Of a stretch of 64,000 bases of DNA, positions 3,365-23,592 are shown one piece after another. Both the position numbers and the translations under genes were made by a program. Source of the stretch: Escherichia coli (GTDB taxonomy: Bacteria; Pseudomonadota; Gammaproteobacteria; Enterobacterales; Enterobacteriaceae); NCBI RefSeq assembly GCF_003790525.1, contig NZ_CP033635.1; one strand, given 5' to 3'. The notes under the pieces are model-generated. The model was not told the origin of the DNA and made no database searches. It saw only the letters and a list, made by a program, of their open reading frames with translations. Every line of letters starts with the position of its first letter. Position 1 is the stretch's first letter.

Positions 3365-3558
3365 GATCACCGTAATATTGCCGGATGGTGACGATTACGC
3401 GCGATTCGGCAATAATACGTTACAGTGTCACGTTTTTTTATCTCTTAAAGCACGCACTGCTTTTGCGGCTGGCCTCTTTTGCCGCAAAATAGTCGCCCGT
3501 GTTTCATTGCCCATTTCTGCTCATGCATCATCTACACATCTATCCGGATCTGAGCACT

Positions 3559-4815
3559 ATGTTCCGCCGTCTGCTTATCGCAACAGTCGTCGGTATTCTT
3601 GCGGCCTTTGCCGTTGCCGGGTTTCGTCATGCAATGCTGCTACTGGAGTGGTTGTTCCTCAATAATGACTCCGGCAGTCTGGTCAATGCAGCGACAAATC
3701 TTTCCCCATGGCGACGGTTGCTAACTCCGGCGCTCGGCGGACTGGCGGCGGGTTTGTTGCTGATGGGCTGGCAGAAATTTACCCAGCAACGCCCTCATGC
3801 GCCGACCGATTACATGGAAGCGTTGCAAACCGATGGTCAGTTCGATTACGCAGCAAGCCTGGTTAAATCGCTTGCCTCTCTGCTGGTAGTAACCAGCGGC
3901 AGTGCAATTGGTCGCGAAGGTGCGATGATTCTTTTAGCTGCCCTTGCCGCCTCCTGTTTTGCCCAACGTTTTACGCCACGCCAGGAGTGGAAATTATGGA
4001 TCGCCTGTGGAGCTGCGGCGGGAATGGCTGCGGCCTATCGAGCCCCGCTTGCTGGCAGTTTATTTATAGCCGAAGTGCTGTTTGGCACTATGATGTTGGC
4101 CTCTCTCGGCCCGGTGATTATTTCCGCCGTCGTGGCGTTGCTGGTTAGCAATCTGATTAATCATAGCGACGCGTTACTCTACAGCGTACAACTCTCAGTG
4201 ACGGTTCAGGCTCGTGACTATGCGCTGATTATCAGTACAGGTGTGCTGGCAGGTCTGTGCGGACCACTGTTGTTAACGTTAATGAACGCCTGTCATCGTG
4301 GATTTGTAAGTCTCAAACTTGCGCCGCCCTGGCAACTGGCACTGGGCGGGTTGATCGTGGGTCTGCTTTCCCTGTTCACACCTGCAGTGTGGGGCAACGG
4401 CTATAGCACCGTACAATCCTTTTTAACCGCCCCGCCACTGTTAATGATCATTGCCGGGATCTTCCTCTGTAAACTGTTTGCCGTGCTGGCGAGTAGTGGT
4501 TCTGGCGCGCCCGGTGGTGTCTTTACACCGACGCTATTTATCGGTCTTGCCATTGGCATGTTGTATGGTCGTAGCCTGGGATTATGGTTCCCTGATGGCG
4601 AAGAAATTACGCTTTTACTCGGATTGACCGGGATGGCGACACTATTGGCGGCAACCACGCACGCGCCGATTATGTCGACGTTGATGATATGTGAAATGAC
4701 CGGGGAGTATCAGCTACTCCCCGGTTTATTGATTGCCTGCGTAATTGCGTCGGTAATTTCGCGGACGTTACACCGTGACTCTATCTACCGCCAGCACACT
4801 GCGAAGCATAGCTAA
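3559..4815 (+). CDS. clcB: ClC-type voltage-gated chloride channel/H+-Cl- antiporter
   Basis: 418-aa polytopic membrane protein from [15 protein letters not shown]...; start chosen at the internal ATG consistent with K-12 ClcB. Confidence 0.85.
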
Positions 4816-12365: not shown

Positions 12366-12391
12366 AATTAACTACACCATTAACTACACCG
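12366..12391. repeat. 26-bp element-end repeat 'aattaactacaccattaactacaccg' (tandem 'ttaactacacc'), candidate integrase arm-type site, left end
   Basis: Exact 26-bp copy at 23567-23592 next to the int start; both copies in direct orientation just inside the element ends. Confidence 0.6.
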
Positions 12392-15849: not shown

Positions 15850-16905
15850 TTAAGCAATTTTGACGGTAACAAATTTGCGAATATCTGCCGGTACAGGCTG
15901 CGGTGCGCTGTGCGTCTGCACGTACTCAATCGCCGGATCGCCGTCCTCAATCCAGTTTTTCGGGTAGTACATGTTTTGCGTTGCGCCCGTTCTTACCGCT
16001 TCCTGATCCATAATCGCACCATATGCCACCAGCCCTTTATTGTTGGTGTTACCCAGGACCAGCAAATCAGGCTCAAGGAAATATTTTTCGGTCCCGTCGC
16101 TGTCAGTGTATTTGCCGGAATAGACGATAAGGGCCAGATCACCAAGATAGCCTTTAAAGCTCACCACTTCGCCCAGGTTTTTACAGGCCAGCTCGGCGGC
16201 GGATTCTGATCCACGGGAAAGATCGTACAGTTCACGGAATTTTTTAAAGCTGCGTAATGTGCGCCATACCTCACCGCCCATAATCATGACGTTGGCGGGG
16301 CAACCTGCCTGATCAGCATAAAGCTCGATGTCATAGATTGGGTCGTGCATGTCTTTATCCTGCTGGGACCATTTTTTACCACTGGCCTGCTGTATGATGC
16401 AGTTTTCCGGTATTTTCCAGTCGATTTCATAGCGTTCTATGCCTTCGCCCTCAATGATGTTTTTTCCGGTCGTTACCGCATTCACCGCCAGCCATTCCAC
16501 GCGCGCCTTAATGGCGTTTATCTGGCGGCGCATGTTGCCAGTAATCAGGCGCATACGGCGGTAAGTTGGATCGTTAAGCTGTGCCGGATCTTCTCCATCC
16601 ATGCGCATGATGGTCTTTGTTGGATCGATTTCGTGCTTTGGCTTCATGTAGCCTGGTTTAATCGTGCTGGTTTCGTACCCTTTATCGCGCTGGACCTGAC
16701 TACCCACCATAGGAGAACAGAACGCTGACATCGTAACCTCTTCAATGTCCAGGGTGTCCAGCATGATGTTTTGGGTGTTGAAGGTCGCCACGTTCGGGAA
16801 AAACAGCGTGGTAAACAGCGGACTAAATTTATATTCCGAAATATCCCCGCGATTCAGGTACGCGAAAAGCTGGTTAGTTGTAAGTGCCTTTGCTTTGCCT
16901 GTCAT
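15850..16905 (-). CDS. major capsid protein, lambda gpE family
   Basis: 351 aa; YKFSPLFTTLFFP and PGYMKPKHEIDP parallel lambda gpE FKFDPLFLRLFF and PGYVKPKHEVNP; similar length to gpE. Confidence 0.75.
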   Translation of the reverse strand: MTGKAKALTTNQLFAYLNRGDISEYKFSPLFTTLFFPNVATFNTQNIMLDTLDIEEVTMSAFCSPMVGSQVQRDKGYETSTIKPGYMKPKHEIDPTKTIMRMDGEDPAQLNDPTYRRMRLITGNMRRQINAIKARVEWLAVNAVTTGKNIIEGEGIERYEIDWKIPENCIIQQASGKKWSQQDKDMHDPIYDIELYADQAGCPANVMIMGGEVWRTLRSFKKFRELYDLSRGSESAAELACKNLGEVVSFKGYLGDLALIVYSGKYTDSDGTEKYFLEPDLLVLGNTNNKGLVAYGAIMDQEAVRTGATQNMYYPKNWIEDGDPAIEYVQTHSAPQPVPADIRKFVTVKIA

Positions 16906-17111
16906 TATTCACCTCCGTGAACCTGATTGATACCCAGCGCCGCACGCAAATAGGTGCGCACCTGCCAGCCTGTTGACGGCTCAACCATCGCCAGCGGATC
17001 AAGTCCTGCCGCAATGCCTGCTTTTACATTCTGCTGGTGGCGTTCCTTGAGCGCCTCCACGATGTCGGGGCTTATGTAGACCGTCACCCCGCCTTTTTTC
17101 TCTTCTGCCAT
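16905..17111 (-). CDS. hypothetical protein (68 aa), first gene of the head cluster
   Basis: ORF with ATG start, stop overlaps the capsid gene start; no family recognised. Confidence 0.4.
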   Translation of the reverse strand: MAEEKKGGVTVYISPDIVEALKERHQQNVKAGIAAGLDPLAMVEPSTGWQVRTYLRAALGINQVHGGE

Positions 17112-17351: not shown

Positions 17352-17624
17352 TCACTTCTGCGGGTAGTTGCGCCATATTGCTTTGCCAATACCAGCTATC
17401 CCCATTTGTTTTTCAGTGCGATTAACTGACCTTTTCAGAGCGCCTAAATCATCCGGCGGCTCCGGTGGCCTCTGTGCCTTACGGATACATTCCGCGCGAC
17501 GCATTGCCACCTGTTCGCGCTCCTTGTCTGTCTCCACCAGCCTCATAACTTCACCCCATCGCGCCGCCGCCCTCCGGTAAAAGCCTTTTGCCTCGAGTTC
17601 CTCCGCTATGCGGTCATGTACCAT
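17352..17624 (-). CDS. PerC-family-like putative transcriptional activator (copy 1)
   Basis: MVHDRIAEELEAKGFYRRAAARWGEV...; paralog of the 13467-13775 ORF; start placed at the internal Met just after the ssb stop. Confidence 0.45.
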   Translation of the reverse strand: MVHDRIAEELEAKGFYRRAAARWGEVMRLVETDKEREQVAMRRAECIRKAQRPPEPPDDLGALKRSVNRTEKQMGIAGIGKAIWRNYPQK

Positions 17625-17634
17625 CGTCACCCCC

Positions 17635-18045
17635 TCAGAACGGAATATCATCACCGTAAGGGTCATCGCCTCCCGCTGGTGGCTGATTACCCTGTGTGCC
17701 TGTGGTTTTGCGTCTGTTCCCGCCAGGACGTGCCGCACGGGCACTGATTACGCTGTCTGCAATAACCTGCCAGCCCTGCCGCGTTTCCCCGTTCTGTCCG
17801 GTCCACTGGCTGACCTGCATCGTGCCGGATACGCTGGCAACGTCGCCTTTTTGATGTTTAGCCAGAAAGTCGGCCTGTTTGCCAAATGCGATGACCGATA
17901 ACCATAACGTCGCCTGTCCGTCCTGTGCCTGGCCGCATGGTAAAGATACCGCCATACGCGCCAGCGTCATCGGTGTACCCTTACTGGTCTGTTTTACCTG
18001 CGGGTCGTCCACCAGCCGCCCGTAAGCTGCTATCTGTGCTGTCAT
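17635..18045 (-). CDS. ssb: single-stranded DNA-binding protein (SSB)
   Basis: 136 aa with OB-fold-like core, Gly/Pro/Gln-rich linker and the acidic C-terminal tail ...DDIPF typical of SSB. Confidence 0.7.
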   Translation of the reverse strand: MTAQIAAYGRLVDDPQVKQTSKGTPMTLARMAVSLPCGQAQDGQATLWLSVIAFGKQADFLAKHQKGDVASVSGTMQVSQWTGQNGETRQGWQVIADSVISARAARPGGNRRKTTGTQGNQPPAGGDDPYGDDIPF

Positions 18046-18656: not shown

Positions 18657-18860
18657 TGCTCACCATCTCTCACTTTTACTACTCACTTTTTAAAGCGTCT
18701 CGCTTCGTCTCACTTGAGATTTTTGTGTTTTGTATGTGCATGTTTCATAAGTGTTTTTTCACTGCTCACTTTTGAGCATGTATACAGGTGAGAAAGTGAG
18801 TAATTGTGTTAATATTTTGTAAAAACCTCACCATTACTCACTTTTACTACTCACTTTTTA
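18657..18860. repeat. iteron array, candidate replication origin ('ctcactttt' repeated ~7 times, one inverted, around an AT-rich core)
   Basis: Copies at 18669, 18682, 18709 (variant), 18765, 18793 (inverted), 18837 and 18850; 'ctcacttttactactcacttttta' occurs twice; lies immediately 3' of the rep ATPase gene. Confidence 0.6.
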
Positions 18861-20264
18861 CAGTGGTCCTACATCATCACCATCAATGTAAATCACGGCG
18901 TCTTTTTCCAGTTTGGCTAACCATCGCCGCATATTTTTCACGTCATACCCAAGCCGTTTCATGTCATCACGTAACAGCGGGATCGTGCACTTGTCGCCGT
19001 TCTGTGTGCGTGAACGGATGCACCCCCATAGCGCGGTATGGTTTTCCGTCTTGTTGCCTGCCTCCTCGATGCGCTCCAGTTCAGCAGGGGCGCGGGGAAC
19101 GTCAATCACCACCATGGACACAATTTCTTCGCCATCTGTATCGGTGAACACCTCCACGCTTTTAAGGTCGTATGCACTCTCTTTTGGCTCCTCTGCGTCC
19201 TTCATCTTCGTACACGCCGCAACCAGTGCTGTAACGTCTGAATTTTCCCTGCTGATTCGGTACTCTGCATCAAGCGCGGCACGGAATGCACTGGAACCAC
19301 GCGCCCCCTTTGTTTCATCCTTGCCGGAATGGTGAACCACCAGCACCGTGGCCCCTGTGGCCTGCTTTATCGCGTCACACCCCTGGATAAATGCGCCCAT
19401 ATCACGGGAATCATTTTCATCATTCCCACCAAAGCAACGGGCCAGCGTGTCGATCACAATCAGCCGCACATTTTCGCCCGTTCTGCTCTTAACAAGTCCG
19501 GCAGTCCTGATAACCTGCTCCACATAGTCAGGCGATGCAGGGAAAACAGGCGCGTTAATGATGCACAAATCTGTAACCACCTTGTCGTGGGTTATCTCCC
19601 ACGCCTTAACGCGGCGTTTTACGCCCATGCTGCCTTCACCAGCGATATAGATAACCGCACCCTTACTTACCCTGCGGCCTCCCCATGCCATACCTGTGGC
19701 AACATGGCACGACCAGGAAATGGCGAGGAACGATTTATAAGAACCGCTGGCCCCGTAGGTGCTGCATAATGACTCAGCCGGAATAAGCCCCTTAATGACG
19801 TAGCTTTGCTGCGCATCGAATCCCTCAGAACCCCATGAGATGGGAAGTGTGATTTTTCGCTTTCCGCCATTCATGACCAGGCTTTCCCCTCTCTCCCATG
19901 TTTCCCGTAGTCGTGGTAGCTGGTCGCTCCAGTCCTCCAGCAGTTCGAAATTTTCAGAAAGTAGCCGCGCCTCCTGGACTCCGGCGATCGCCAGTTTTGT
20001 GGCAATGGTCAGCATCTGCATATCGTCCAGGTTTCCGGCGCGTATGACCTTTACCCTGTATCGTCCTTCATCAACAATCTGTAAGTTGTCCAGTTCGCTT
20101 AACTGATAACGGCCCAGATAAACCGGAGGGATGGGATCGCCTGCTTTTTTGGCCTGTGCAATCATGTAATGTTCTGCAAAGGAGTGAGCATTATCACCCG
20201 CAAAAATAACCGCCTCAGTGTGTTTATCTTTCGGTAACAGTTTTACGTTCGGTGCAAGTTTCAT
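18858..20264 (-). CDS. replication protein with RecA-like P-loop ATPase domain (RepA/DnaB-like, satellite pri-rep type)
   Basis: 468 aa; Walker A YGASGSYKS, Walker B-like RLIVIDTL, HHSGK motif; C-terminal region possibly DNA-binding; iterons directly downstream. Confidence 0.65.
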   Translation of the reverse strand: MKLAPNVKLLPKDKHTEAVIFAGDNAHSFAEHYMIAQAKKAGDPIPPVYLGRYQLSELDNLQIVDEGRYRVKVIRAGNLDDMQMLTIATKLAIAGVQEARLLSENFELLEDWSDQLPRLRETWERGESLVMNGGKRKITLPISWGSEGFDAQQSYVIKGLIPAESLCSTYGASGSYKSFLAISWSCHVATGMAWGGRRVSKGAVIYIAGEGSMGVKRRVKAWEITHDKVVTDLCIINAPVFPASPDYVEQVIRTAGLVKSRTGENVRLIVIDTLARCFGGNDENDSRDMGAFIQGCDAIKQATGATVLVVHHSGKDETKGARGSSAFRAALDAEYRISRENSDVTALVAACTKMKDAEEPKESAYDLKSVEVFTDTDGEEIVSMVVIDVPRAPAELERIEEAGNKTENHTALWGCIRSRTQNGDKCTIPLLRDDMKRLGYDVKNMRRWLAKLEKDAVIYIDGDDVGPL

Positions 20265-20548
20265 TTCTTACCCCCTGCGACCAGCATTTCACGGATTTTG
20301 CGGATATAACTTGCAGCACGTTTCTGATTAACGGCTTTACGATGGCCCACCAGCGTGAAATCACGCCGGAACTGATAAACAGGCATAACGCAGTCATATT
20401 CGTAGCCTTCACGGCGGTAAGTGATGCGACGTTCCTCCACGCCCTTAATCATTACCGTGCCGCCGTAGTTATCACGGAAAATATCGCCGGGACGGATTTC
20501 AGGACGAGCGGGGCCGCTGGCATTAACGCCAGAATTTTTATTTTTCAT
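20261..20548 (-). CDS. hypothetical protein (95 aa), translationally coupled upstream of rep
   Basis: ORF overlapping the rep start by 4 nt; basic; no family recognised. Confidence 0.45.
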   Translation of the reverse strand: MKNKNSGVNASGPARPEIRPGDIFRDNYGGTVMIKGVEERRITYRREGYEYDCVMPVYQFRRDFTLVGHRKAVNQKRAASYIRKIREMLVAGGKK

Positions 20549-20553
20549 GTTTT

Positions 20554-20781
20554 TTATTCTCCGGTGTGCTGTTCTTTATATCTGTCGTGAATTGCCATCA
20601 CTGTATTTAATTCATTAATAACAGCCGTTAATAGCGTACGCACGGCAGAAAACATCATTGAATCAGATTCATCGCCACTTTCCTGCACATCAATTAAATT
20701 AAGTAGTAATGCGTCCATTTCCTTTGCGCGGATTAATGCCTTTTCACAATGAAAAATAACACCAAAGGGTATTTTATTCAT
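20554..20781 (-). CDS. hypothetical protein (~75 aa; ORF-track frame extends to 20823)
   Basis: First gene of the minus-strand replication operon; start uncertain (MNKIPFGV... versus the upstream Met). Confidence 0.4.
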   Translation of the reverse strand: MNKIPFGVIFHCEKALIRAKEMDALLLNLIDVQESGDESDSMMFSAVRTLLTAVINELNTVMAIHDRYKEQHTGE

Positions 20782-21060
20782 GACTCCCCTCCTGACGGAT
20801 ACGGGCGGCGAATACAGCGACACAACCGGACGGGCAACGGTTACGCGCTTCGCGTTCCGTCCAGGCGGTCACGTGGATAATTTGAGATTCTCCGGCACTC
20901 AGTGCCAGAAAACGCCACACAAAGGCGGTTTGTGTGTGCGCTAGTCGTGGGGTATGCTGTGTTCCAGCCATAATCGTTACTCCTGTTAACGGTTTGGTTA
21001 GACGCCCTGCATGTGTTACAGCACTGCGGGGCGTTGTCTTTTTAACGGCTTTCGTGATAG

Positions 21061-21104
21061 GGTGTACACCTATCAAGCAAAAACATAACGCTATAGGTGT
21101 ACAC
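21061..21104. promoter_or_regulatory. perfect 12-bp inverted repeat (gtgtacacctat ... ataggtgtacac), candidate operator abutting a small regulator gene
   Basis: Read directly from sequence; the 3' half ends 1 nt before the ATG at 21105. Confidence 0.5.
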
Positions 21105-21299
21105 ATGTCAACAGTTATTAAGCGAGATAAAAAACCAAAGGGAACAGGAAAAGCCCCCCCATTCCATATGCGAATAGCTCCAGAACTGAAAGAGCAGTTT
21201 GATAATGAGGCCAGCAATGATGGGGTAAGCCTAGCCAACTGGCTTAAAGAGTTGGGGCGCGCCGAACTAAAGCGACGCGGCATTGAACCTAAAGGCTGA
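21105..21299 (+). CDS. small basic protein (64 aa), possible ribbon-helix-helix/YlcI-YnfO-like prophage regulator
   Basis: MSTVIKRDKKPKGTGKAPPFHMRIAPELKEQFDNEASNDGVSLANWLKELGRAELKRRGIEPKG; family assignment from memory only; divergent from the replication operon. Confidence 0.4.
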   Translation: MSTVIKRDKKPKGTGKAPPFHMRIAPELKEQFDNEASNDGVSLANWLKELGRAELKRRGIEPKG

Positions 21300-21302
21300 T
21301 GT

Positions 21303-21426
21303 ATGACTGAAAAGCAGACCGATAACAAACTTTCTCTACCAGAGAATAAACCAGCAGGCTTCTTACCAAGAAAAATCCTTGATGAGATCAAACGCCGCCA
21401 GCGCCGCAAGGCCAAAGAGCAGGAAT
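21303..21426 (+). CDS. possible small protein (41 aa, Lys/Arg-rich C-terminus)
   Basis: ATG 4 nt after the preceding stop; MTEKQTDNKLSLPENKPAGFLPRKILDEIKRRQRRKAKEQE; followed by a strong hairpin terminator. Too short for the ORF track. Confidence 0.25.
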
Positions 21427-21460
21427 AGCCCACCAGCAAGCCAGCACACTGATCACATTG

Positions 21461-21490
21461 GCCACCGTGACAGGTGGCCTTTTCTTTGCC
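21461..21490 (+). terminator. rho-independent terminator (ggccaccgtgacaggtggcc + T-rich tract)
   Basis: Perfect 7-bp stem with 6-nt loop followed by ttttctttg, just after the 41-codon ORF. Confidence 0.55.
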
Positions 21491-21752
21491 CGTTATCCGG
21501 CAATTGTGGCGCTTCGCCACACGGTTGATATAATTCCCCTGCTCAGATTCATTTTTTGCGCGGCAGGTAAATTGTTCAGAAAGGCGGCTCCTTATCGGGG
21601 CCGCTTTTTTTATGTCTGAAAAACCGCGATTTTGTTGTTTTTCAGTTTCACCAGGCCGAACGAAGCCCCGCCCATGTTCGGGCGTATATCCAGTCTTCAT
21701 GGTTAAATCTCTGTATTAGTGGATGGGTGGCGGCTGTGTGCCGCCAGTCTTT

Positions 21753-21941
21753 TTAGTGAACTGCCTCGCAGCTTTCCTTCCATGCCAGAACTTCGGATAA
21801 AGACCAGCCAACGGAACGACCGCCCAGCTTACGCCGTGATGGGAATTGTCCGGCCTTTTCCAGGCGGTAGCGGCATGAGCGGCTAAGGCCTGTTAGCTTT
21901 TCGCATTCTTTTTCACGTATAAAGCGATCAGTGCTTAACAC
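21753..21941 (-). CDS. alpA: AlpA-family (Phage_AlpA) transcriptional regulator
   Basis: 62 aa; ...EKLTGLSRSCRYRLEKAGQFPSRRKLGGRSVGWSLSEVLAW... matches the AlpA HTH signature; adjacent to int. Confidence 0.75.
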   Translation of the reverse strand: MLSTDRFIREKECEKLTGLSRSCRYRLEKAGQFPSRRKLGGRSVGWSLSEVLAWKESCEAVH

Positions 21942-22315: not shown

Positions 22316-23563
22316 TTATTTTCTTCTGGCTACTGGTAGCGTGGTTACGTTTTCATGTGCTCCCGCCAGTATCTCCAACCGCTCCACCCACATATCCAGC
22401 GCATTGCGTTTCGCATCCAGATAACGGGAATGATTATAAACTCGCTGCATTCCTGGCATCTGGTGGCCTGTAAGCTGCTCCACGACGTGAGGATCCACGC
22501 CTAAATCGTTCAGCATCGTTGTAAAGGTGCGCCGGATGTCATGCAGTGACCATTGAGGGTGTTTTAGCCTCCTGTGCGCTAATCTGCCGTACTGCGATAC
22601 GCTGGCCTCCTGTTTCACTTCCCCCAGTAATAAGCCCGTGTGCCTGTTCTGCTCCACCAGCCGCGTGACGAACGGCAGGATCGCTTCCGGTATGGGCCGG
22701 AATATTGCGACCTTCGTTTTGCTGTGCTCCTTCGGAACGGTCCAGAGCATTTCCGTGAAATCCCACTCCCCGATCTCCGATAACCTCAGTTCTACCGTCC
22801 TGGCTCCGAAGACAATCAGGAGGCGGATTAGTGCGACGTAGTAAGGGGAAAATATTTTTTTGTCCAGTGCCTGCAATAATTCGCCCAGTTCTTTGGTGCT
22901 TAAGACACGTTCGCTTATATCCGGTTTTTTCCCAACGTCCGCCACGTTCAGATCGTCCAGAACGTTGCTGATTGCATAGCGCCGCCTCCGGCAAAACTTA
23001 AGCGCCTGTTTGCACGCCTGTAGCACGAATCCGGCAGTAACAGGCGTTCGCTTTGCCACCCGATCAAAACAGGCCAGCCAGTGCCGTAGCTCGCATTTAT
23101 CCAGCGGCATAGCACCAATGTGCTGTATTACGTGATTATTAAGTCGCCTTTTCAGGGCGATATAATCCACGCGGTTTTCCTTTACGTAAGACTCAAGCCA
23201 GTAGGTGAGCGCATCTCCAACCGTTACAGGCTTTAACGCTTCCTGCATGGTGTAATTCATCTCATGACGTGGATTTTTCCCCTCAGCCAGCCATGCGCGA
23301 CACTGGGCGGCTTTTTCCCTGGCTGATTTCAGGCTCAGATCAGGATAATTTCCCAGCTTAATACGTTCCGGTCGTGTCTCTCTTCCCGTTCCGGCCCTGT
23401 AAGTGAAATACCAGGTTAAAAGGCCGCTGGTTGAATGCCTGACGCTCAGATTTCCACCGTCATTAAGAAAGGCTGTTTTTTGGGCGGGTGTGCCGTTGAT
23501 TTTCCTTAGCTGTGTATCGCTCAGCTTGTTAAGTGCTCTGGTCATAATTTTGAATCCGGTCAT
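22316..23563 (-). CDS. int: tyrosine site-specific integrase (P4-type)
   Basis: ~415 aa; N-terminal arm-binding-like region, C-terminal catalytic motifs (HDIRRTF, GHQ..VYNHSRY); located at the element's right end next to the arm-type repeat. Exact start uncertain (GTG/ATG/ATG cluster). Confidence 0.85.
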   Translation of the reverse strand: MTGFKIMTRALNKLSDTQLRKINGTPAQKTAFLNDGGNLSVRHSTSGLLTWYFTYRAGTGRETRPERIKLGNYPDLSLKSAREKAAQCRAWLAEGKNPRHEMNYTMQEALKPVTVGDALTYWLESYVKENRVDYIALKRRLNNHVIQHIGAMPLDKCELRHWLACFDRVAKRTPVTAGFVLQACKQALKFCRRRRYAISNVLDDLNVADVGKKPDISERVLSTKELGELLQALDKKIFSPYYVALIRLLIVFGARTVELRLSEIGEWDFTEMLWTVPKEHSKTKVAIFRPIPEAILPFVTRLVEQNRHTGLLLGEVKQEASVSQYGRLAHRRLKHPQWSLHDIRRTFTTMLNDLGVDPHVVEQLTGHQMPGMQRVYNHSRYLDAKRNALDMWVERLEILAGAHENVTTLPVARRK

Positions 23564-23566
23564 CAC

Positions 23567-23592
23567 AATTAACTACACCATTAACTACACCG
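23567..23592. repeat. 26-bp element-end repeat (same as 12366-12391), right end, immediately upstream of int
   Basis: Exact 26/26 identity with the left copy. Confidence 0.6.

Follow-up and report, generated by a model that had tools for sequence, protein, structure and literature searches.

The immI region of phage P22, worked out in the Sauer, Susskind, and McClure laboratories, carries two ribbon-helix-helix (RHH) repressors, Mnt and Arc, the overlapping promoters Pant and Pmnt, and the antisense RNA sar. In phage P1, immI comprises icd and ant, the C1 repressor at promoter P51, and a c4 RNA that lies upstream on the same transcript and acts in trans. For the satellite P4, Forti et al. reportedly found in 1999 that, when translation proceeds from the upstream promoter, the transcript no longer responds to immunity-dependent termination. 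P4 kil, of 65 amino acids (aa), is nested in the long eta frame, which begins beside the alpA homologue vis, upstream of PLE (PMC10111431). Among the Gram-negative phage-inducible chromosomal islands (PICIs), EcCICFT073 is induced via the activator AlpA, whose transcription is turned on by a helper phage, and in 2018 a global repressor of these islands had not been identified, AlpA being the only known activator (PMC6092414). We examined a control region in a 64,000-nt stretch of Escherichia coli DNA (contig NZ_CP033635.1 of assembly GCF_003790525.1, called the window below), in which an element of ~11.4 kb is inserted in tqsA, with TGCTGTTAT at both junctions (~12284 and ~23718). Islands of the EcCICFT073 type span about 10-15 kb; judged by its genes, its size, and its insertion site, this element is a Gram-negative PICI of that type. 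On balance we judge it probable that the control region is a switch in which two operator boxes for an Arc-like RHH protein lie on a leftward promoter, PL, and are combined with an antisense RNA and an AlpA-driven override. The parts of this arrangement are known from P22 immI, P1 immI, and P4 kil/eta, and their combination is not described in the literature searched, in which we also found nothing relevant on an RHH or YlcI/YnfO regulator in PICIs.

A sequence-only reading of the region had reported a perfect 12-bp palindrome beginning at 21061 and ending 1 nt before the ATG of a 64-aa ORF. The repeat is real: the sequence and a repeat search gave a perfect (12/12) inverted repeat, with a left arm GTGTACACCTAT at 21062..21073 complementary to a right arm ATAGGTGTACAC at 21093..21104 across a 19-nt spacer. 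It starts at 21062, and its right arm directly adjoins the repressor ATG (21105-21107). Each arm holds the palindrome GTGTACAC, so that the pair is also a direct repeat of GGTGTACAC with 35-bp spacing. Five distinct perfect inverted repeats (at least 12 nt, spacer of at most 40 nt) occur in the window, where first-order Markov random windows average 0.27. One such repeat is thus improbable by chance yet not unique in the window, and taken alone it is suggestive, not decisive; the decisive evidence is its conservation.

For comparison, 87 related loci were collected, mainly via IMG/VR and exact-protein look-ups, a scan of genome contigs having yielded 2 loci, and 10 further loci (Klebsiella, Salmonella, Morganella, and Aeromonas) were added for residue classes not yet met, giving about 100 in total from Escherichia, Klebsiella, Salmonella, Morganella, and Aeromonas. 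The reported repeat proved to be the inner part of two 12-bp boxes, which stand at the same positions in all 87 loci and in the 10 added ones. Box 1 (GGGTGTACACCT, 21060..21071) is a pseudo-palindrome of two AGGTGT-type half-sites that overlaps the -10/+1 region of a candidate rightward promoter, PR, and box 2 (AGGTGTACACAT, 21095..21106) lies in the PL spacer and covers the Shine-Dalgarno sequence of the repressor gene and the first two bases of its start codon. Across the loci the end of box 2 falls within the start codon, and the distance upstream to box 1 is 32-37 bp, mostly 35 bp. Both boxes are built as pseudo-palindromes from two 6-bp half-sites, whose outer AGGT/ACCT flanks are nearly constant.

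The central bases of the boxes vary together with two residues of the predicted beta strand of the 64-aa protein, those aligned to Gln9 and Asn11 of Arc, which contact bases; in RHH proteins, base contacts come from alternate strand residues, and specificity shifts with them. Seven residue-pair classes were found, each with its own half-site sequence in both boxes: the pair P/H goes with the inner half-site AGGTGT, Q/R with AGGTG(A/G), Q/K with AGGTGG, A/Q with AGGTAC, T/Q with ACGTAC, M/N with AGGTCT, and I/S with GGTCC. An eighth pair, V/P, came from one Aeromonas sequence whose half-sites are unlike between its two boxes and is uninformative. Within the P/H class, nucleotide diversity was 0-0.02 in the box centres and 0.285 in the spacer between the boxes; between classes it was 0.57-0.60 in the central 4 nt, 0.49 in the spacer, and 0.0 in the inner flanks. 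The neighboring icd-like and alpA genes have been reshuffled among the loci by recombination, and box class tracks the RHH class, not the icd-like or alpA type. From this pattern we infer, with good support, that the palindrome belongs to the operator of the 64-aa protein and that both boxes are its predicted binding sites. One RHH dimer would occupy each box, with its two-stranded beta ribbon reading the central four to six bp.

The same alignments bear on the idea that the inverted repeat works as a hairpin (a terminator, an RNA stability element, or a replication origin) rather than as a protein site. The perfect 12-bp complementarity around a 19-nt loop speaks for such a structure, but the two boxes of the Q/R class vary independently at the central dinucleotide (AC, GT, or GC), which is the same in both in many loci (e.g., L003 and L005), complementary in L031, and different elsewhere. 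Complementarity between the arms is therefore not maintained, which rules out a hairpin, in RNA or DNA, as what is under selection, and no pairing-preserving compensatory changes were seen among the loci. The spacer is moreover unconstrained, with lengths of 20 to 25 nt, each box is itself palindromic, and no T-run follows, so we find a hairpin function barely credible.

Matches to the boxes with at most two mismatches number four in the 64-kb window, where 1.3 are expected, and all lie in the island; the two besides the boxes themselves carry two mismatches each. These look-alikes are AGGTGCGCACCT at 16952-16963, a perfect palindrome in a 68-aa ORF upstream of the capsid gene, and CGGTGAACACCT at 19142-19153, in the helicase gene. 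In a Klebsiella locus of the T/Q class (L090, 2440-2510), box 1 is without one ACGT unit and the usual TGTCAA/ATG reads TATCAA/ATA, so this locus may be a decaying copy of the switch.

The candidate repressor itself (21105..21299, plus strand) had been correctly described as a 64-aa basic protein, with a net charge of about +5. It matched the PHROG 228 profile 'Arc-like repressor' (E = 6.9e-6), and when its family profile was searched against the PDB, the best solved relative was P22 Arc (1b28; E = 1.3e-3, residues 12-59). The profile alignment sets Arc PQFNLR against PPFHMR, within a predicted beta strand at about residues 19-25 (PFHMRIA), and pairs Arc Q9, N11, and R13 with P19, H21, and R23. 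The protein has 213 homologue clusters, and R23, the equivalent of Arc R13, is invariant. An AF2 model (pLDDT 77) placed helices at residues 26-38 and 43-57 after an extended segment, and its best Foldseek matches were all RHH proteins, with Arc first (TM-score on the target of 0.86), followed by NikA, CopA, AmrZ, and CopG. The protein thus contains the RHH core of about 45 residues, with an N-terminal beta strand and two helices, and neither the profile nor the AF2 model gave any domain beyond this core and a basic N-terminal arm. As modelled, the 64-aa protein has the RHH fold, with P22 Arc as its closest solved relative. Its position is fixed across the loci, between the alpA-int module and the icd-like/replication operon.

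Relatives of the protein carry the name YlcI/YnfO family. The 64-aa protein itself gave no match to the YlcI/YnfO model NF041551 (curated cut-off of 30 bits) at E <=0.01; scores of 37 and 67 bits were reached, respectively, by a relative of 69% identity in locus L004 and by the EcCICFT073 protein encoded at the corresponding genomic position.

In RefSeq the 64-aa protein is named 'HicB family antitoxin', a name that stems from the shared RHH motif only. Together with a weak Pfam HicB match, and with a gene order (antitoxin first) and an operator over the promoter that are typical of such modules, this name raises the question of a type II toxin-antitoxin system, in which the RHH protein would neutralize the 41-aa peptide encoded next to it and autoregulate through the palindrome. 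We rejected the HicB identity: the Pfam HicB/RHH matches are weak, PF05534 is matched within the RHH part only (residues 20-48), a HicB N-domain and an adjacent HicA gene are both lacking, and the genes downstream vary or are absent. The sequence-only reading had noted a 41-codon ORF and a strong terminator after the 64-aa ORF. Both are present, the ORF (orf41) at 21303..21428 on the plus strand and the terminator-like hairpin (GGCCACC...GGTGGCC, 21460-21479, with a T-run to 21487) at the end of the rightward unit; the ORF is, however, no conserved partner. It occurs in 6 of the 87 loci, with its frame kept in four variants, and the gene downstream of the repressor is absent or different in the other 81. 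Protein family profile searches returned no family for orf41, while its C-terminal 22 aa resemble the C terminus of the EcCICFT073 YlcI/YnfO protein (15/22 identical, E = 9e-9). From this likeness, orf41 is probably the 3' remnant of a second-type YlcI/YnfO RHH gene. Resemblance to the tail of another RHH gene, and the fixed place of the 64-aa protein within the satellite, make a toxin-antitoxin role very improbable.

The candidate leftward promoter PL (21082..21111, minus strand) was the sole strong minus-strand promoter in a consensus scan, with 10/12 matches: a -35 element TTGACA at 21111-21106, an 18-nt spacer, and a -10 element TATGTT at 21087-21082, with a predicted start at ~21075. The -35 element overlaps the start codon of the repressor gene, and its complement TGTCAA is invariant in all loci, even in L079, where the ATG is displaced and the hexamer no longer codes for the N terminus. 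Klebsiella L088, Aeromonas L093, and EcCICFT073 each gave this promoter, at the corresponding place, as the only or best match. The two boxes flank the PL -10 element on both sides, box 2 filling the spacer and box 1 lying at about +4 to +15, so that a protein bound there would exclude RNA polymerase. The candidate promoter of the repressor gene, PR (21034..21063, plus strand), has a -35-like TTGTCT at 21034-21039 and an extended -10 element, TGaTAGGGT, at 21055-21063, with a predicted start at ~21070. Its motif TGnTAnnGT (TGATAGGGT in the window, 21055-21063) is invariant in ~58 of ~58 unique upstream sequences, and its overlap with box 1 implies autoregulation. As read from the sequence, PR is the weaker call of the two.

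With predicted starts at ~21070 rightward and ~21075 leftward, the promoters appear to be face-to-face and overlapping, and the simple back-to-back divergent layout that had been proposed does not hold. Nor does the leftward operon begin at 20823, as that reading had it: its first gene is an Icd-like ORF with its ATG at 20971, inside which the left edge of the reported region (20824) falls, and the true intergenic region is only 20972-21104. The 75-aa ORF to which the start at 20823 had been given most likely starts at ATG 20781.

In EcCICFT073, which is syntenic with the island gene for gene and has the same layout of the switch region, the RHH gene is of the YlcI/YnfO type and only profile-related to the 64-aa protein. 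Two 13-bp repeats AGGTGTGGCCCAC occur there, one in the PL spacer and one at +1, so the two-site geometry is conserved across two repressor lineages despite the different RHH protein.

Downstream of the repressor gene, other loci carry variable cargo that starts 5-32 nt after the RHH stop codon, which marks the site as a hotspot for accessory genes. Among this cargo are the anti-phage gene PD-T7-1 (E ~1e-153), a SWIM protein, and a protein with a weak likeness to Abi (E ~3e-4); searches of the cargo proteins against NCBIfam gave no match. Such close spacing, together with the overlap of box 1 and the conserved extended -10 of the rightward promoter, would fit a protein that only autoregulates a rightward anti-phage cargo operon, the leftward promoter being either not real or not its target. 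Three features speak against so narrow a role. On the opposite strand, box 2 is flanked by an invariant TTGACA and a conserved TAnnnT; several loci, and in effect the window too, are without any cargo yet retain the RHH gene and both boxes; and EcCICFT073 has the same two-site PL geometry, though its RHH gene starts ~60 nt beyond the outer repeat. We therefore regard a cargo-only function as unlikely.

The arrangement at PL and PR resembles P22 immI: Arc is the closest solved relative of the repressor, the operators lie inside a promoter, an opposing promoter overlaps it, and the gene downstream has its ribosome-binding site covered by a short antisense RNA. There are also differences. The island has one repressor gene and two 12-bp boxes 35 bp apart, whereas P22 has two repressor genes and one 21-bp operator; the operon controlled in P22 is that of the antirepressor, whereas here it holds an Icd/Kil-like gene and replication genes; and the island is a satellite, its promoters and RNA being predictions.

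Opposite the start of the icd-like gene we identified a candidate cis-antisense small RNA (20966..21043, plus strand), consisting of hairpin 1 (20966-20999), hairpin 2 (21001-21035), and a terminal TCTTTTT. Hairpin 1 lies opposite the Shine-Dalgarno sequence and ATG of the icd-like gene, and the RNA as a whole is fully complementary to the PL leader, this Shine-Dalgarno sequence, and the start codon. A -10-like TATGCT for this RNA (20953..20958, plus strand) falls within icd-like codons 5-7, and loci that differ in icd-like type all conserve a TATGAT or TATGCT, 7-8 nt ahead of hairpin 1. The plus-strand fold was the more stable in 44/44 distinct sequences (mean of -36.2 versus -24.5 kcal/mol for the minus strand), an advantage that arises from conserved G-U pairs. 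In a model-based alignment of 52 sequences, 92.6% of cells were paired and 17 of the 26 pairs showed compensatory double changes, the covariation being already visible in a plain MAFFT alignment; none of 500 shuffles reached any of the measures, and slid controls gave 36-49% pairing. The covariance model found one copy per locus, including loci outside the training set and EcCICFT073. The exception, L037, has two, the second motif (3552-3646, 83 bits) lying ~550 nt downstream of the repressor gene beside a divergent orf41, in what looks like a duplicated or captured control region.

Rfam searches in permissive mode, covering the region of the window and eight related loci, assigned no family to the antisense RNA, and C4 and isrK gave no match at E <=1 in the same set. 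The sole Rfam match to the RNA was symR (RF01809), over the full model length but with 24.7 bits (E = 0.21); a SymR identity was rejected, this score being far under the gathering score of 61. A weak isrD match was likewise discarded, as it corresponds to the terminator hairpin at 21460-21479 only. Like SymR, which acts on SymE, the candidate is a cis-antisense RNA of ~77 nt that starts a few nucleotides inside its target ORF and covers the Shine-Dalgarno sequence; unlike it, the target here is unrelated to SymE. With P1 immI the island shares an Icd-family first gene (NF033153) whose translation start is targeted by a small RNA, but no ant gene was identified in the island, and in P1 the c4 RNA acts in trans and C1 acts at P51. 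We propose the RNA as a candidate new family, absent from Rfam 15; the literature searched held nothing relevant on an icd antisense RNA. DNA similar to the query was present in 1,271 of 5,426 complete E. coli genomes, mostly unannotated at the match, and the 70 bp adjoining the icd-like start fall within the most widely matched part of the query.

The predicted target of this RNA, the first gene after PL, is a 65-aa Icd-like ORF, putatively of the P4 Kil family (20774..20971, minus strand; ATG at 20971, Shine-Dalgarno sequence AGGAG at 20984-20980). It matched NF033153 ('host cell division inhibitor Icd-like') with E = 4.9e-18, and positions 1-69 of phrog_1743 matched both the Icd-like protein (E = 7.5e-24) and the C-terminal 65 aa of the P4 eta/kil ORF (E = 7.5e-21). 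The icd-like ORF is in turn the end of a much longer frame of 308 codons (20774..21700, minus strand), which begins at ATG 21700, 53 nt after the alpA stop codon, reads across orf41 and the repressor gene in antisense, crosses the boxes and the RNA region, and enters icd-like in frame. Not one stop interrupts the 243 codons ahead of the icd-like ATG, compared with 16 and 12 stops in the other two frames, and none of 20,000 composition-matched random sequences reached such a stretch. Of 69 unique loci, 44 have one frame of the minus strand that stays open for 150 codons or more, reaching the icd-like stop in 33 and ending just before the icd-like start in 11, while the other two minus-strand frames have median open lengths of 36 and 19 codons. 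EcCICFT073 has an equivalent frame of 428 codons that also starts 53 nt after alpA.

This nested eta-like frame is organized as in P4, where the long frame is ORF 8812-8168: two genes share frame and stop codon, and the longer begins beside an alpA/vis homologue (21700-20774 and 20971-20774). Both elements thus have an alpA/vis homologue, a long frame with an internal promoter that ends as a 65-aa ORF matching phrog_1743, and replication genes downstream, and in both an RNA acts, or in the island is predicted to act, on the leader of the internal-promoter transcript. In P4, however, that RNA is CI, which acts in trans and is processed from the same strand, and there is no protein repressor; the island has a cis-antisense RNA and an RHH gene antisense within the long frame, and the C4 and isrK models, which detect CI, were unmatched. 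A terminator-like hairpin on the minus strand at 20916-20936 (CACACAAACCGCCTTTGTGTG and GCGTTTTCTG), in the 5' part of icd-like, is also found in the O157:H7 relative L003 and, by analogy, could be an attenuator comparable to P4 timm. A second minus-strand hairpin of this kind, with an 11-bp stem and a T-run, lies in the antisense strand of the repressor gene (21141-21165, at the GTGKAPPFH codons), where it would stand in the path of read-through transcription from alpA.

The Icd-like first gene, the antisense RNA, and the nested frame, none of which figured in the sequence-only reading, change the mechanism from the one proposed there. In the quiescent state, RHH protein made from PR would occupy both boxes, switching PL off and holding down its own production and, in relatives, that of the anti-phage cargo encoded behind the repressor gene. 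PL would otherwise drive the Icd/Kil-like gene and then the replication genes of the island. A second lock would be the ~78-nt two-hairpin plus-strand RNA, transcribed from a promoter inside the first icd-like codons, which would block translation of the Icd-like ORF; this block would probably make the transcript polar on the replication genes and so neutralize leakage from PL. Induction would most likely bypass the repressor protein, a helper phage turning AlpA on as in EcCICFT073. Transcription from the alpA promoter would then run leftward through the whole cassette and collide with transcription from PR, and this convergent transcription would also silence the repressor gene. With the long frame translated, ribosomes would traverse the region targeted by the RNA and go on into icd-like and the replication genes, and the alpA transcript would be insensitive to the antisense RNA and to termination, by analogy with P4 eta/kil.

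The sequence-only reading had instead likened the region to satellite switches in which a small repressor holds the replication and packaging genes off until a helper protein arrives. As far as it concerns a small repressor, that claim is supported: the protein has a repressor-type RHH fold, its predicted operator lies on the promoter that serves the replication operon, and the element is a satellite. A master repressor of this kind would resemble Stl of Staphylococcus aureus pathogenicity islands (SaPIs) or Rpr of Gram-positive PICIs, the genes of which also lie opposite the satellite excision-replication operon, and it would fill the place of the Gram-negative PICI repressor that is missing from the literature (PMC6092414). 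Derepression by a helper protein is the part that we found no support for. Stl is a much larger helix-turn-helix (HTH) protein with a domain that binds helper proteins, whereas the 64-aa protein consists of an N-terminal arm and the RHH core, with no domain to receive an inducer and no helper partner that we could name. The convergent alpA unit and the nested frame would amount to a protein-independent override within the locus, and EcCICFT073 requires AlpA for induction, with its transcription switched by the helper (PMC6092414). Release of the island through a helper protein that binds the 64-aa protein is accordingly quite unlikely in our view, and AlpA-driven read-through is the likelier route.

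Several observations weigh against the switch with repressor, antisense RNA, and AlpA-driven override. The operator and the beta strand are less than 100 bp apart, and physical linkage inflates their co-variation, although linkage fails to explain the joint change of two separate boxes across an unconstrained spacer. The boxes are spaced by 32-37 bp, mostly 35 bp, which does not correspond to whole helical turns and hence does not imply cooperative binding. PL and PR are assigned by consensus matches and conservation, and PR, with its poor -35 element, was not reported by the consensus scan. Hairpin 2 is without a T-run in about a fifth of the relatives, where the RNA may not be a separate small RNA but the leader of the repressor mRNA. 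BLASTP gave no alignment of the Icd-like protein with P4 Kil, and tblastn against phage records did not reach P4, the tie between the two being the PHROG profile. In ~25 of the 69 unique loci the long frame is interrupted, for the most part where the plus strand bears large cargo, which indicates that its translation is not universally required.

The remaining genes place the switch in its island. To the right of the cassette are an AlpA-type HTH regulator/excisionase gene (21753..21941, minus strand; phrog_2790, 1.3e-17), whose homologues carry PF05930 Phage_AlpA, and the tyrosine integrase of the island (22316..23566, minus strand). Two more plus-strand terminator-like hairpins, at 21585-21610 and 21726-21749, lie between orf41 and alpA; together with that at 21460-21479, they form a series of three that would shield alpA from rightward transcription. 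After icd-like, the rest of the leftward early operon (18858..20781, minus strand) consists of the 75-aa ORF (20554-20781), a DUF4222 protein (20261-20548), and a RepA-like helicase (18858-20264), with genes for a single-stranded DNA-binding protein (SSB), PerC, a major capsid protein, and a decoration protein downstream of the helicase. The island gene set is thus int, alpA, icd-like, DUF4222, RepA-like helicase, SSB, PerC, major capsid, and decoration.

Further features were observed along the island. The segment 20592-20779 is the sole difference from an otherwise >99% identical island in E. coli CM2, and this replaced patch over the 75-aa ORF suggests a recent recombination in the early operon. 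Just past the helicase stop (18858), an AT-rich segment at 18793-18844 contains a perfect 12-nt inverted repeat (AAAGTGAGTAAT / ATTACTCACTTT) with a 28-nt spacer. The origin of Gram-negative PICIs is said to lie downstream of pri, and this repeat may be part of the replication origin. A 26-nt exact direct repeat, AATTAACTACACCATTAACTACACCG, stands near the two island ends (12366-12391 and 23567-23592), its right copy directly upstream of the integrase start; these copies may be arm-type integrase sites. As in EcCICFT073, neither a terminase nor a portal gene accompanies the genes for the major capsid, head decoration, and PerC-family proteins (15850-17111 and 17352-17744). Repression of LEE virulence genes has been reported for a PerC-like protein from a related PICI (PMC11773190).

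More broadly, and only tentatively, it is possible that this module is the maintenance switch of Gram-negative PICIs, EcCICFT073 included, with an RHH repressor and an antisense RNA overridden by AlpA, two opposite-strand proteins expressed in different states, and the seven residue-pair classes serving as immunity (incompatibility) groups between islands that share a host cell. The locus offers a concrete, testable candidate for the missing repressor of Gram-negative PICIs, one that is present in the model island EcCICFT073 too, and its seven natural beta-strand/operator variants form a recognition table that could be tested by residue swaps. In relatives the repressor heads an operon with anti-phage genes (PD-T7-1), so its action bears on how satellites express their defence cargo. 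The control region of a Gram-negative PICI also has nested eta/kil logic in common with the satellite P4, and, if the proposed switch is true, one stretch of DNA would encode a protein on either strand, the two being made in different states of the element.

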